A DNA stretch of 64,000 nucleotides, from assembly GCF_002854065.1 (NCBI RefSeq), contig NZ_CP024147.1; one strand, 5' to 3'. Under the pieces are notes generated by a model, which was given only the letters and a program-made list of their open reading frames with translations, was not told the origin of the DNA and did no database searches. Positions 1 through 7,621 of this stretch are shown here, in pieces; positions within the stretch are counted from its first letter, which is position 1; each line of letters starts with the position of its first letter. The translations under genes were made by a program, and so were the position numbers. The stretch comes from Escherichia coli (GTDB lineage Bacteria > Pseudomonadota > Gammaproteobacteria > Enterobacterales > Enterobacteriaceae).

Positions 1-54
1 TGCTAATTGAGAACCAACTTGTCCAGTGAATCCTGTAATTAATACATTATTCAT
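1..54 (-). CDS. 5' end (about 18 codons) of an SDR-family nucleotide-sugar dehydratase/epimerase gene that runs off the window start
   Basis: Minus-strand ATG at 54-52; translation MNNVLITGFTGQVGSQLA carries a TGxxGxxG Rossmann motif typical of GDP/dTDP-sugar 4,6-dehydratases; remainder lies outside the window. Confidence 0.4.
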   Translation of the reverse strand, partial: MNNVLITGFTGQVGSQLA

Positions 55-60
55 ATATGC

Positions 61-894
61 TTACCCCTTAATAACGTTTAAATATGATTCACATGATCTA
101 TCAAGAATAGATTCGAGAAAACGACTTTTGGTATTAATTTTTTTTGGCCTACCCAGCCAAAATGATTCTGGCGCATCTGTAAATTGATACTGCAGTTCTG
201 GAAATTTTTCCTGCGCTAGCGCCAAAACAATCTGTTGTCGACTGACAAGATCCGGGCCGGAGAAATTAACGATGCGAGTATCAATTTGGCTCCAATTCAA
301 TATAATATTTTTGATGCCTAACAATACATCATTAATTGAAACAACACTGCGCTCAAAACCATCAAATACATCTAATAATTTACTATTCAAACTGTGCTCT
401 TTTACCATTTCAGAGAATTTATCACCTTTCCCTAAAATGTACGAAAATCGTATTACGAAGAACCCAGGGTTATTTGAAAAATGTTCTTCAACTTCACATT
501 TCATTTGACCATATTTGCCAAATGGTTTTCGTTCTGACATTTCAGTGCACACATCAGATGTACCACCAAATACAACATCACTTGATGAGAAAATCACTCG
601 CGCATTTTTTTTAAGTAATTCAGATATCAAAGTAATTGTATTTTTCACATTAATCTTATGCGCAACGTCATAGTTTTTCTCACATTGATCAGGCGCAGAG
701 ACTGCTGAAAGAAAAATGATGGTGTCATCATTGTTTACTTGATCCAGTAAATCATTAAATTCACCAGTTTCCAGATCAAAATGAATATCTGAATTTTTTC
801 TTCCAACTGTTACCAGCGAAAAAGCATCACTAAGAAATGATTTAAGATGATTACCAACGTAACCAGTAGACCCTAGAATGAATACTTTTCTCAT
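61..894 (-). CDS. NAD(P)-binding SDR-type nucleotide-sugar reductase/epimerase (RmlD-like), O-antigen cluster
   Basis: 277 aa ORF with N-terminal GSTGYVG Rossmann motif; AT-rich; co-oriented and tightly packed with the O-antigen genes. Confidence 0.55.
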   Translation of the reverse strand: MRKVFILGSTGYVGNHLKSFLSDAFSLVTVGRKNSDIHFDLETGEFNDLLDQVNNDDTIIFLSAVSAPDQCEKNYDVAHKINVKNTITLISELLKKNARVIFSSSDVVFGGTSDVCTEMSERKPFGKYGQMKCEVEEHFSNNPGFFVIRFSYILGKGDKFSEMVKEHSLNSKLLDVFDGFERSVVSINDVLLGIKNIILNWSQIDTRIVNFSGPDLVSRQQIVLALAQEKFPELQYQFTDAPESFWLGRPKKINTKSRFLESILDRSCESYLNVIKG

Positions 895-967
895 ACTCAG
901 TTACCAAATTATACGAAGTGAAGATGTATGCACATAAAATGCTATGAAGACAATTTTATCTGCCATT

Positions 968-1942
968 TTAATAACCGACGGATAGCTCAAATACACCGTC
1001 ATGATCTTTGGTATCTTTAAATTTAATTTTATAAATTTTATTATGATTAAGGCGAAGCCAGAAACTGTTGTCTTTAATGGATACTCTTTCCCAATCACTT
1101 GTTGTGGTTTTAAAACTGACGGAGACCACATCAACATCAATATTAAAATTAACATCTGAATATTCAGCTGTTGGATTTATATCTCCAACCTTAAAAGCTA
1201 CTGTTTCAGTATTTTTGTATTCCAGGAGCTTAAGCCCATAACTTGTCAGTTTCATAATCAAATTATATTTATTGTATACACTGTCACTTGGACCTTCATC
1301 CAGAACAACACCGTTTTCAATGCAAACAAGTCGATCGGAAAGGAGCTTCAACTGGTGTTCGTCATGCGAAACGATGACGACTGTTGTGTCTGACTTTATT
1401 TTTTCACGAATGCTTTTTTGTGCTTTCTCTGCAAAAGTCACGTCACCGACACCCAGTACTTCATCAATTAACAGAACTTCAGGGGTAGTATACATGGCAA
1501 TTGAGAAACCCAAACGTGCTAGCATACCTGATGAATAATTTTTAATTGGTTTTTCGAAGAACTCATTAAGCTCTGAATATACTTTGATGTCTTCAATAAT
1601 TGATTTGATATAAGACAATCTATGACCGAGGACCATTCCACTAAAGATAGTATTCTGACGACCTGATAAGTTGGGATCAAATCCTGCCTGAAGGGCCATT
1701 AGAGAAATACTGTTTGAATGAATAGTTATTTGCCCAGAATCAGGCTTAATAATACCCGCCAGAACTCGTAGTAATGTAGATTTCCCTGCTCCATTACGCC
1801 CAATTATTCCAAGAGTTTCGCCACGATAAACATCGAATGTAATGTTTGTCAAAGCTTCATATTCATCGTAAGTAAAGAGTGTTTTCTTTTCTCTATAAAC
1901 TAAACCTACGTTTTTTAGCTCAATAATCTTTTCATTCTTCAT
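968..1942 (-). CDS. wzt: O-antigen ABC transporter ATP-binding protein Wzt, with an ~85 aa C-terminal extension
   Basis: Walker A GRNGAGKST, ABC signature YSSGM, Walker B LLIDEVL, H-loop SHD; 4 bp overlap with upstream permease gene; extra beta-rich tail after the nucleotide-binding domain. Confidence 0.85.
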   Translation of the reverse strand: MKNEKIIELKNVGLVYREKKTLFTYDEYEALTNITFDVYRGETLGIIGRNGAGKSTLLRVLAGIIKPDSGQITIHSNSISLMALQAGFDPNLSGRQNTIFSGMVLGHRLSYIKSIIEDIKVYSELNEFFEKPIKNYSSGMLARLGFSIAMYTTPEVLLIDEVLGVGDVTFAEKAQKSIREKIKSDTTVVIVSHDEHQLKLLSDRLVCIENGVVLDEGPSDSVYNKYNLIMKLTSYGLKLLEYKNTETVAFKVGDINPTAEYSDVNFNIDVDVVSVSFKTTTSDWERVSIKDNSFWLRLNHNKIYKIKFKDTKDHDGVFELSVGY

Positions 1943-4698: not shown

Positions 4699-4700
4699 AA

Positions 4701-5654
4701 TTACTTACACCTAATTGATTTTATTAATTTATCAATGCCATCATCGAGTACAACCGTCGGACGCCATCCTAACTCAGCCATAGCTCGCTTAATATCTAAA
4801 ATAATTCCGTTAGCATTGGTATGGATAGGATCTTGAAAACCGATTACTGCCTTTTTATTCAATTTAAATTCGATAGTTTCAATAAGTTTTTTTAACGTAA
4901 TAGATTCTCCAGAACCTATGTTAAAAATATCTTCATGTCCTTCATATTCTAATGAACACATGAAGGCTTGTACAAGATCACTTATATAAATATAATCTCT
5001 TTTACTCTCAATTGAACCAATAATATCAATTGGAATATCATTTGAGATTTTATTTAAAAATATTGGTATTACACCTTGCTTACCATCTATTCTCTGCCCT
5101 TCTCCATAAGGATTTGAGATCCGCAATGATATGGATTTACCATTGAGTTCTTTAGCAATAAATCGTAAGTATGTCTCAGTCATAACTTTGCTTAAGCCAT
5201 AACTGATCTCTGGTAAAAGTGCATCATCTTCAGAAAATGGTGTATCGGATTTTCCGTAAACAGTGCCACCCGATGATGCAAATATAATTTTCTCACAACC
5301 ATTTTCATATAGGTTTTTGAAAAAACAGACATTCGCATAAACATTTTCCAGACAATCTTTATCGATATTTTTTTTCGATTCATGTGGAAACATAGTTGTT
5401 GCCAAATGAATAACTGTCTTAATATTGTGGCGGCTAACTATCTCATGCAGTTCTTTTATACGCTGAGAAGATTCGAGGTAGCTAAATTTATACCAGTTAA
5501 AATATTCACTTAGCTCAGGCAACGAGTCTGGTTTATCCGAAATATCGAACGACACTAGTGGGATCTGCCTTTCGACCATTTCGGTGATCAATGCTTTACC
5601 TATAAACCCAGCACCGCCTGTAATCAGGACTCCATTTTTTCTAGCATCCATCAT
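4701..5654 (-). CDS. NAD-dependent epimerase/dehydratase family protein; candidate dTDP-4-keto-6-deoxyhexose reductase
   Basis: 317 aa; [11 protein letters not shown]ossmann motif and YxxxK (YGLSK) catalytic motif; sits between rmlA and the Glf-like gene. Confidence 0.6.
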
Positions 5655-6520
5655 TCACCTTTTGCACGTGCTATAATGTATTGACCATAATCATTTTTCT
5701 TCATAGGTAGTGCATTTTTTATTGCTTCTTCTTTGCTTAACCAACCATTTCTTAATGCAATCTCTTCAAGACATGCAACCTTGAGGCCCTGAACATTCTG
5801 GATGGTTTGCACGAAGGATGACGCTTCATGCAAACTTTCGTGGGTCCCTGTATCCAACCAAGCAAAACCACGCCCCAGTAGCTCTACGTTAAGAGTACCT
5901 TCTTTGAGATACATGTCATTAAGATCAGTAATCTCCAGCTCCCCTCTCACTGAAGGTTTAACTTTTTTAGCGAAATCGATAACGCGATTATCATAGAAGT
6001 AAAGTCCAGTGACTGCATAATTTGATTTTGGTTTTGACGGTTTTTCTTCAATAGATACAGCCCGCATCTCGCTATCAAATTCAACTACACCGAAGCGTTC
6101 AGGGTCTTTCACTTGATAACCAAATACTGTTGCACCGTATTCTCTTGCAACAGCATTCTGCAGGATTTTGATAAATGATTGGCCATAAAAAATATTATCA
6201 CCCAGCACCAAACAAACTTTATCGTTTCCTATAAATTTCTCACCAATGAGGAATGCCTGCGCTAATCCATCAGGGCTGGGTTGCACGGCATAATTAAGCC
6301 GAATACCAAAATTACTGCCATCACCGAGTAACCGCTGGAAACTCGCATTATCTTCTTCAGTGGTTATTATTAATATATCTTGAATACCCGCTAGCATAAG
6401 TGTGGAAAGCGGGTAATAAATCATTGGTTTATCATAGATTGGTAATAGTTGTTTTGATACACCACGAGTTATTGGATACAATCTAGTGCCAGAGCCGCCT
6501 GCTAAAATAATACCTTTCAT
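5651..6520 (-). CDS. rmlA: Glucose-1-phosphate thymidylyltransferase
   Basis: 289 aa; [19 protein letters not shown]-terminus and overall RmlA/RfbA sequence signature. Confidence 0.95.
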
Positions 6521-6532
6521 CTTTTATCCTTA

Positions 6533-7621
6533 CTACTCTACGAGCCCTAAGCGTTCACCAGCGTACGAACCATCCATCACACGCTGCCACCATTCTTTAT
6601 TATTTAAATACCAGTGAATGGTTTTAGTGATACCCGTTTCAAACGTTTCTTGCGGCACCCAACCTAAATCTTGTTTAATTTTACTGGCGTCAATGGCATA
6701 TCTAAGGTCATGCCCTGGACGATCGCTAACATACCGAATCAACTGTTCAAAATTTTCAATGCCATCTGGTTTATCTGCAATCAATTCATCGAGAATGCGA
6801 CAAATAGTTTTCACTACATCGATATTTTTACGTTCGTTATGACCACCAATATTATATGTTTCTCCCGGCACACCCTTTGTGACGACTTCATAAAGTGCCC
6901 GGGCATGATCTTCAACATATAACCAATCTCGAATTTGCTCACCGTTCCCATAAACAGGTAAAAGTTTACCCGCAATTGCATTCAGAATAATTAACGGAAT
7001 GAGTTTTTCAGGGAAATGGTACGGCCCATAATTATTAGAACAATTTGTCACTATGGTGGGTAATCCATATGTACGCCGCCATGCACGAACTAAGTGATCA
7101 CTGGATGCCTTAGAGGCGGAATATGGACTGCTAGGGGAATATGAAGTTTGTTCTGTAAACAATGGCAATATTGTATCTGACGATACTTCATCCGGATGAG
7201 GAAGGTCACCATAAACCTCATCCGTAGAAATATGGTGGAAGCGAAATGCACCTTTGCGATCTTCACTAAGTGCTAGCCAATACTTACGAGCTTCTTCTAG
7301 TAAGATATATGTTCCAACAATATTGGTTTCAATAAAGTCTGCAGGGCCTGTGATTGAACGATCAACGTGGCTTTCGGCTGCCAAATGCATTATTGCATCT
7401 GGTTGGTGATGTGCAAAAATATTGGCTATTGCAACGCTGTCGCAAATATCCGCATGCTCAAATTTATACCGCTCGTTATTCTCAATCTCTGTCAGAGATT
7501 CCAAATTACCTGCATAGGTAAGTTTATCAACATTGATGACAGAGTCTTGCGTATTATTAATTATATGACGAACAACTGCAGACCCAATAAAACCTGCACC
7601 ACCTGTAACCAGTATTTTCAC
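6533..7621 (-). CDS. rmlB: dTDP-glucose 4,6-dehydratase
   Basis: 362 aa; [22 protein letters not shown]-terminus; first gene after the galF-rmlB intergenic region, as in E. coli rfb clusters. Confidence 0.95.

Follow-up and report, generated by a model that had tools for sequence, protein, structure and literature searches.

A gene block next to galF in Escherichia coli matches the galF-proximal half of the O52 O-antigen cluster

Gene content of the locus

We analyzed a stretch of 64,000 nucleotides (nt) of the Escherichia coli contig NZ_CP024147.1 (assembly GCF_002854065.1), termed the window throughout, with a focus on the O-antigen genes at its left end. From the left edge to position 7621 the window holds an unbroken run of minus-strand open reading frames (ORFs), whose boundaries, starts, stops and junctions were each re-derived. 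According to our analysis, positions 1-7621 are almost certainly the galF-proximal and promoter-proximal half of the O-antigen (rfb) gene cluster of E. coli serogroup O52. The features of the locus are as follows (aa, amino acids; SDR, short-chain dehydrogenase/reductase; ABC, ATP-binding cassette):

1-54, minus strand: dmhA, first 18 codons, with the start at 54; translation MNNVLITGFTGQVGSQLA with a Rossmann motif; continues past the left edge of the window
61-894, minus strand: dmhB, RmlD-like SDR of 277 aa; exact match to UniProt Q6E7E7
968-1942, minus strand: wzt, ATP-binding subunit of the ABC exporter, 324 aa; exact match bearing the RefSeq O52-family name
971-1237, minus strand: C-terminal tail of Wzt, residues 236-324; predicted FN3/Ig-like β-sandwich, candidate carbohydrate-binding module
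1939-2712, minus strand: wzm, ABC-2 permease subunit, 257 aa; RefSeq O52-family name, RepID=Q6E7E9, Pfam ABC2_membrane on orthologues
2714-3568, minus strand: wbrV, GT2-family glycosyltransferase, 284 aa; exact match to UniProt Q6E7F0
3565-4698, minus strand: fcf2, Glf-family mutase, 377 aa (RefSeq 'glf'); exact match to Swiss-Prot FCF2_ECOLX
4701-5651, minus strand: fcf1, SDR reductase, 316 aa from the ATG at 5651 (317 aa from the ATG at 5654); RefSeq fcf1
5651-6520, minus strand: rmlA (rfbA), glucose-1-phosphate thymidylyltransferase, 289 aa; TIGR01207 at 513.7 bits, cutoff 360.65; RefSeq rfbA
6533-7621, minus strand: rmlB (rfbB), dTDP-glucose 4,6-dehydratase, 362 aa, GTG start, first gene of the operon; NF007490 at 689.1 bits, cutoff 649; RefSeq rfbB
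7716-7754, minus strand: JUMPstart element with the ops octamer GGCGGTAG at 7720-7727; Rfam RF01707 at 56.0 bits, gathering score 35, E 3.9e-10
7763-7791, minus strand: TTTACC-17-TATCAT, a promoter-like site just upstream of JUMPstart; weak consensus-scan hit of which the position alone fits
8045-8935, minus strand: galF, upstream boundary of the O-antigen locus and outside the cluster proper; NF007516 at 639 bits, cutoff 534; RefSeq galF

Positions 1-54 are the beginning of a gene and not the end of one. The junctions of the block are those of a translationally coupled operon. The genes rmlA and fcf1 share the motif ATGA (4 nt of overlap, reduced to 1 nt if the RefSeq start is used), both fcf2/wbrV and wzm/wzt overlap by 4 nt, and a gap of 2 nt lies between fcf1 and fcf2. 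The original prediction, made from the sequence of this locus, had the reductase and mutase genes directly consecutive, which is what we found, and overlapping by a few bases, which they do not; its gene list lacked the GT2 gene at 2714-3568. Alternative starts exist for fcf1 (316 aa in RefSeq, from 5651, or 317 aa, from 5654), wbrV (278 aa in RefSeq, from 3550, 18 nt downstream, or 284 aa in Q6E7F0, from 3568 with the ATGA overlap with fcf2) and galF (296 aa from 8935 or 300 aa from 8947).

The GC content per gene ranges from 0.33 to 0.36 for dmhB through fcf1 and from 0.395 to 0.41 for rmlA and rmlB, compared to 0.54 for galF and 0.55-0.61 for the colanic-acid wca genes. The AT-richness that had been noted for the block (GC 0.33-0.41 versus 0.54-0.61 in galF and wca) is thus borne out gene by gene.

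Identity with the O52 cluster

A megablast search with window positions 1-8000 against 5,426 complete E. coli genomes returned four complete chromosomes with 100% identity over the full 8 kb. RefSeq annotates the 100%-identical genomes with O52-family wzt and wzm together with fcf1, glf, rfbA and rfbB. Strain CUWW06 is a 100% match at both stretches of the window that were searched, 1-8000 and 58000-64000.

The window proteins were also looked up by exact sequence in a collection of 15 billion proteins. The 377-aa mutase is the Swiss-Prot entry FCF2_ECOLX, 'dTDP-fucopyranose mutase', the protein of 61-894 is UniProt Q6E7E7, 'DmhB', and the 284-aa GT2 protein is UniProt Q6E7F0, 'WbrV'. Wzm bears the UniRef label RepID=Q6E7E9 and Wzt an O52-family name, both being exact matches to the RefSeq 'O52 family O-antigen export ABC transporter' subunits, and in its 316-aa form the reductase has exactly the sequence of a protein (P0018) named 'dTDP-4-dehydro-6-deoxyglucose reductase'. 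Since full-length genes are identical to database proteins, chance is not at issue.

The complete cluster was read in L001, the annotated locus of a genome that is 100% identical to the window over positions 1-8000. Its gene order is galF-rfbB-rfbA-fcf1-fcf2-GT-wzm-wzt-dmhB-dmhA-hddA-gmhA-hddC-gmhB-GT-(GT2-FkbM)-GT4-gnd, where the distal glycosyltransferase (GT) genes encode a 442-aa GT, a 719-aa fusion of a GT2 domain with an FkbM methyltransferase (TIGR01444, 93.3 bits) and a GT4 protein, with gnd next. The locus therefore has the galF-gnd location, with galF directly upstream in the window and gnd after the cluster in the identical genome. Gene content and order agree with O52 for rmlB-rmlA-fcf1-fcf2-wbrV-wzm-wzt-dmhB-dmhA, and beyond dmhA they are visible in the identical genomes only. 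According to the annotation, none of rmlC, rmlD, wzx and wzy is present in the full galF-gnd cluster of L001, and rmlC and rmlD are likewise missing from the window. The original prediction of rmlB and rmlA without rmlC/rmlD, and of export by wzm/wzt in place of wzx/wzy, is in line with these annotations and with the O52-family names of both transporter subunits.

Among the E. coli O antigens, D-fucofuranose (D-Fucf) is found in O52 only, as is the heptose 6-deoxy-D-manno-heptose (6d-D-manHep), and the O52 O unit is a short heterodisaccharide (PMC7685785). Few E. coli serogroups, O52 among them, use wzm/wzt (PMC7685785). The same review counts one glycosyltransferase beyond the expected number in the O52 cluster, predicts WbrX to be bifunctional and reports a proposal that a putative O52 methyltransferase acts as chain terminator (PMC7685785). 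Our finding is hence already known biology, as O52 structure, genetics and key enzymology were published between 2004 and 2008. The novelty implied by the original prediction did not survive: the exact match to a characterized serogroup removes it and, at the same time, confirms the biology.

Synthesis of dTDP-D-fucofuranose

RmlA and RmlB both pass the curated NCBIfam cutoffs, and RmlC and RmlD are absent from the annotation of the full cluster. DmhB reaches 64.4 bits on the RmlD model, far under the cutoff of 224. RmlA and RmlB would convert glucose-1-phosphate into dTDP-4-keto-6-deoxy-D-glucose, which Fcf1, as a dTDP-4-dehydro-6-deoxyglucose 4-reductase, would reduce at C4 to dTDP-D-fucopyranose (dTDP-D-Fucp). 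The flavin-dependent Fcf2 would then contract the ring, converting dTDP-D-Fucp into dTDP-D-Fucf. This is the pathway that had been proposed for the locus with the fcf1/fcf2 genes of O52 in mind, and both proteins proved sequence-identical to O52 Fcf1 and Fcf2. Synthesis of dTDP-L-rhamnose with rmlC and rmlD located elsewhere was considered and rejected.

As judged from their sequences, Fcf1 and Fcf2 of the window are the very enzymes assayed by Wang et al. (2008), to the extent that this work is described in PMC10888714. As quoted there, Fcf2 yields dTDP-D-Fucf from dTDP-D-Fucp in vitro, and the Km values are 0.38 mM for Fcf1 and 3.43 mM for Fcf2 (Wang et al., 2008, in PMC10888714).

Family models alone name these two enzymes differently. 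The best NCBIfam match of Fcf1 is GalE, at 112.2 bits versus a cutoff of 262.3, and its best matches in the Protein Data Bank (PDB) are also GalE-type epimerases; the structure search returned no close solved structure for Fcf1. Fcf2 scores 324.5 bits on TIGR00031, the equivalog model of UDP-galactopyranose mutase (UGM), the cutoff of which is 303.75, and it is on account of passing this cutoff that RefSeq labels it 'glf'. The same label is found on orthologues assigned to Enterobacter, Kluyvera and Cedecea. Fcf2 is 61.5% identical (538 bits) to the Klebsiella pneumoniae UGM (KpUGM) 2BI7, a higher value than the 51% identity to a putative Fcf2 that adjoins an fcf1 homologue in Ochrobactrum (PMC10888714). 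By sequence membership Fcf2 belongs to the UGM family, and we class it as a Glf-family protein and do not file it as a UGM in the strict sense. The original prediction had named clustering of the mutase with UGMs, and of the SDR with UDP-hexose 4-epimerases, as a test that would speak against the fucofuranose route. The mutase does cluster with UGMs and the SDR matches GalE below threshold only, and the test does not discriminate, both proteins being published dTDP-sugar enzymes. Automated annotation, from NCBIfam TIGR00031 to the RefSeq name 'glf', thus mislabels dTDP-fucopyranose mutases as UDP-galactopyranose mutases, and the context, rmlBA without rmlCD plus an adjoining fcf1, is a better predictor of function than sequence clustering.

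In order to compare Fcf2 with KpUGM residue by residue, we took 18 positions to be the UGM active site, and the roles of these residues are likewise our assumption. Fourteen of the 18 are unchanged, and four differ from KpUGM (N84T, T156P, I157K and N270S in Kp numbering). The four substitutions are identical in five of five Fcf2-type sequences, down to 86% identity. As a lead for further work, they may be what turns the UGM scaffold towards dTDP-fucose specificity.

Synthesis of GDP-6-deoxy-D-manno-heptose

The original prediction had taken the SDR genes at 61-894 and 1-54 as a sign of a second unusual sugar. The two genes proved to be dmhB and dmhA of the GDP-6-deoxy-D-manno-heptose route, which bears this view out. 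The full dmhA lies at 8026-9054 of L001 and encodes 342 aa annotated as 'GDP-mannose 4,6-dehydratase', with 153.5 bits on the gmd model, under the cutoff of 415. The name dmhA for this O52 gene follows a review (PMC7685785). DmhB has only a weak match to the RmlD model, and among solved structures it is nearest to RmlD-type reductases (E 2e-13). The heptose genes of L001 encode HddA (384.5 bits), GmhA (191 bits), HddC (188 bits) and GmhB (169.8 bits, above the cutoff). All six components, gmhA, hddA, gmhB and hddC together with DmhA and DmhB, are hence in place; several of the scores lie under the equivalog cutoffs, so the assignment is at family level.

Together with gmhA, hddA, gmhB and hddC, which lie just past the left edge of the window, DmhA and DmhB would make GDP-6-deoxy-D-manno-heptose, and DmhB would act as the C4 reductase of the last step. 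In O52, the GDP-heptose derivative is made by dmhAB, hddAC and gmhAB (PMC7685785). Biochemical work on Yersinia pseudotuberculosis established the two-step DmhA/DmhB route (Butty et al., 2009, as cited in PMC7949155).

Polymer assembly and ABC export

The cluster holds an ABC-2 permease and a Wzt-type nucleotide-binding domain (NBD) and neither wzx nor wzy; the only nearby MOP flippase belongs to the colanic-acid cluster. The Wzt NBD (approximately residues 25-231) matches Aquifex Wzt (8DKU/6AMX) at 163 bits. WbrV shows only sub-threshold matches to NCBIfam GT2 models, including GlfT1 at 24.6 bits, and from the 4-nt overlap of its gene with fcf2 we infer that it is a candidate D-Fucf transferase.

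We posit that the glycosyltransferases, WbrV in the window and three outside, would assemble a polymer of the D-Fucf/6-deoxy-heptose disaccharide, carried by undecaprenyl diphosphate on the cytoplasmic side of the membrane, and that Wzm/Wzt would export the finished chain. The GT2-FkbM methyltransferase fusion outside the window may cap the chain, and the C-terminal β-sandwich tail of Wzt may recognize the terminated chain. In this scheme, the assignment of glycosyltransferases to linkages is what we infer, while the sugar composition, the ABC-transporter dependence and the Fcf1/Fcf2 enzymology are taken from the literature. What we computed directly is the sequence identity to O52, for proteins and for genomes, the order of the genes, the family assignments and the JUMPstart element.

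The C-terminal tail of Wzt

In O52 Wzt, about 90 residues (~93) follow the NBD. No Pfam Wzt_C domain was found in the protein, of which ABC_tran is the sole Pfam domain, and the tail showed neither a match to PF14524 nor structural likeness to the known carbohydrate-binding domains of Wzt proteins. A phmmer search with Wzt residues 228-324 against 1.84 billion representatives returned nothing but the tail's own cluster and one spurious protein. The latter (P0078, 3288 aa) was rejected as a relative, as it consists of low-complexity repeats rich in D, E, N and S and its score sums 19 weak matches, a compositional artefact. The sequence relatives of the tail are confined to O52-type clusters of E. 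coli, of a probable Enterobacter contig and of probable Cedecea contigs. Between E. coli and Cedecea-type Wzt the tail is 49% identical and the full-length protein 80%, and by this comparison the tail evolves much faster than the rest of Wzt.

An AlphaFold2 (AF2) model of the tail alone, built on an alignment of three sequences, is an eight-strand β-domain with a mean predicted local distance difference test score (pLDDT) of 82.5 and a predicted template modeling score (pTM) of 0.72. The predicted fold is a generic FN3/Ig-like β-sandwich. The model of full-length Wzt, from a three-sequence alignment as well, was discarded, as its NBD was unfolded (mean pLDDT 40.2). According to the cited literature, the chain cap is read in terminator-coupled ABC systems by a carbohydrate-binding module that is joined to the NBD of Wzt. 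It is conceivable, though on balance we doubt it, that the O52 tail is a carbohydrate-binding module unclassified by Pfam and sequence search, which would read the terminal cap (perhaps a methyl group added by FkbM) and gate export. If true, the rule that only terminated chains are exported would come to include a new type of domain.

Transfer of the cluster between genera

The Fcf2 variant found on the contig L003 (assembly GCA_053118655.1) is assigned by NCBI to Enterobacter roggenkampii, and the contig is probably Enterobacter. We compared this contig with the window over positions 1-11800 and, for the distal genes, with L001. From rmlB through the GT2-FkbM gene the nucleotide identity is 99.2-100%, galF is 98.4% identical, and the flanking wcaL and wcaK are 75.7% and 73.7% identical. 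Taken as one block, the cluster, galF and the 3' half of wcaM match the window at 98-100% identity. In a 150-nt sliding comparison the breakpoint falls inside wcaM, at approximately window positions 9,750-9,860, where identity rises abruptly from 54-65% to 99-100%. The pattern indicates a very recent transfer of the O52-type cluster between genera, namely E. coli and the probable Enterobacter. Horizontal acquisition, which had been suggested from base composition, gains direct support from this near-identical cluster amid 74-76% identical wca flanks.

The contigs L005 and L006 carry an Fcf2 variant assigned by NCBI to Cedecea and have the same gene order. With the window they share 69-80% identity, in the cluster and in the flanks alike, which indicates that the Cedecea-type copy is an old, diverged one. 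Taken together, the identity jump in L003 and the diverged copies of L005 and L006 mark the O52-type cluster as a mobile cassette among Enterobacterales. The recent cross-genus move is of relevance for serotyping across genera and for phages or vaccines that target O antigens.

Apart from these contigs, near-identical Fcf1 and DmhB proteins (P0022 and P0035) are deposited as Shigella dysenteriae, which suggests that the O52-type cluster occurs in isolates typed as Shigella.

Alternative explanations

Some points weigh against reading the block as the O52 locus with the two sugar pathways described above. The window stops inside dmhA, so that the distal half was read only in genomes that match the visible part at 100%, and identity with the type strain would follow from exact matches of five proteins to UniProt/Swiss-Prot entries. 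Both RefSeq and the NCBIfam UGM model name the mutase a UDP-galactopyranose mutase, and what DmhA and DmhB do in O52 itself is not yet confirmed biochemically (PMC7685785). Nothing substantive counts against the O52 identification. One could imagine a new serogroup, or a hybrid, in which nothing but the galF-proximal half is common to O52 and other genes lie beyond dmhA, given that the window ends 54 nt into dmhA with the distal half outside, that O-antigen clusters are known as mosaics and that L003 shows recombination at the locus. Against this, four of the four complete genomes that match positions 1-8000 do so at 100%, and the one inspected has the full O52 set up to gnd. The far end of the window is also 100% identical to CUWW06, one of those four genomes, and the independent contigs L003, L004, L005 and L006 show the same gene order as far as their sequence extends, into the GT2-FkbM gene. 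We consider such a hybrid barely credible.

Only slightly more room is left for the view that we are dealing with an ordinary Glf as the mutase and with a UDP-hexose 4-epimerase as the 316-aa SDR, with galactofuranose in the O antigen and rmlB/rmlA as leftovers or serving another sugar. It would account for the passed TIGR00031 cutoff and the RefSeq name 'glf: UDP-galactopyranose mutase', for the 61.5% identity to a bona fide UGM of K. pneumoniae with catalytic Arg, Tyr and Trp kept, and for the GalE-type epimerases as best NCBIfam and PDB matches of the SDR. However, the mutase is identical to FCF2_ECOLX, whose dTDP-Fucp mutase activity has been measured according to the account quoted above, and the SDR is identical to Fcf1, with a GalE score (112 bits) far from the cutoff of 262.3. 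The O52 unit, moreover, is a heterodisaccharide of D-Fucf, seen in O52 only, with 6d-D-manHep, which leaves no room for galactose (PMC7685785), and the four genes show full or near translational coupling. We regard this explanation as very improbable, and the O52 locus with its dTDP-D-Fucf genes remains the reading that we adopt.

Regulatory signals upstream of the operon

The JUMPstart element lies ~95 nt upstream of rmlB. With its ops octamer it is the usual RfaH-dependent antitermination signal of a long operon. The promoter consensus scan of the galF-rmlB spacer returned three sites versus 1.9 expected, which is not significant. The octamer GGCGGTAG occurs eight times in the window (at 7720, 17824, 41215, 42649, 45130, 45640, 55991 and 59440), compared to 1.34 expected from shuffles, and only the copy at 7720 has JUMPstart context. 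The other seven were rejected as regulatory sites, as they share no common flanks and lie inside gene coordinates (RefSeq, near-identical genomes). Their excess is probably an effect of composition or codon usage.

A second JUMPstart is found at 31886-31923 on the minus strand (Rfam, 41.4 bits), upstream of the colanic-acid genes wza-wzb-wzc. Its ops-like octamer reads GGCAGTAG, compared to the canonical GGCGGTAG.

Remainder of the window

Beyond the O-antigen locus the window is normal chromosomal sequence of E. coli, with the colanic-acid cluster, asmA, dcd, udk, alkA, mdtABCD-baeSR and the gat operon. An Rfam 'algC RNA' motif is found at 17402-17451 on the minus strand (55.8 bits), directly upstream of the colanic-acid phosphomannomutase gene cpsG. 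A SIB antitoxin RNA is located at 42066-42212 on the plus strand (150 bits), where it adjoins the gene of an Ibs type I toxin in the interval from mdtA to yegD, and the small RNA CyaR is at 56311-56396 on the plus strand (100.7 bits).

The dgcE (yegE) region at 37421-39760 on the plus strand contains two ORFs of 570 and 201 aa, which RefSeq names a PAS-domain protein and a diguanylate-cyclase-domain protein. The intact product of K-12 dgcE has ~1100 aa, and the copy in the window looks truncated or disrupted. An IS5-family transposase ORF (326 aa) is located at ~62448-63428 on the minus strand, within the gat operon between a gatA-like ORF and gatZ. In this region the window matches CUWW06 and departs from strain 100416 from position 61509 onwards, where the gat operon of strain 100416 also carries an IS5, arranged differently.

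Comparison with known systems

The closest known system is the E. coli O52 cluster itself (Feng et al., 2004, J Bacteriol 186:4510; Wang et al., 2008, Mol Microbiol 70:1358; both as cited in PMC7685785 and PMC10888714). In everything compared here, the locus side and the gene order are the same, Fcf2, Fcf1, DmhB, WbrV, Wzm and Wzt are exact matches, and rmlC/rmlD and wzx/wzy are likewise absent. No difference was detected except for the annotated starts of fcf1 (316/317 aa) and wbrV (278/284 aa).

Compared with the UGM of K. pneumoniae (2BI7/3INT), Fcf2 belongs to the same Pfam GLF family and the same flavoenzyme fold family. Conserved in Fcf2 (Kp numbering) are His60/63, Phe151/152, Tyr155, Trp160, Arg174, Tyr185 and Arg280, and also Glu301, Tyr314, Arg343, Tyr349 and Asp351. 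Both enzymes presumably perform the same ring-contraction chemistry. They differ in substrate, in that the substrate reported for Fcf2 in the work quoted by PMC10888714 is dTDP-D-fucopyranose and that of UGM is UDP-galactopyranose. For the heptose branch, the counterparts are DmhA and DmhB of Y. pseudotuberculosis O:2a, whose gene names are used in O52 as well, with the role in O52 being assigned from sequence.

With regard to export, O52 resembles the terminator-coupled systems of E. coli O8/O9a and K. pneumoniae O12/O4/O7 in having Wzm together with a Wzt whose NBD is followed by an additional C-terminal domain. As in those systems, there is also a methyltransferase-containing multidomain enzyme, which has been proposed as terminator in O52 (PMC7685785). 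The O52 tail differs from theirs in being only ~90 aa long, without a Wzt_C match and without sequence relatives, and in O52 both the cap and its binding are putative.

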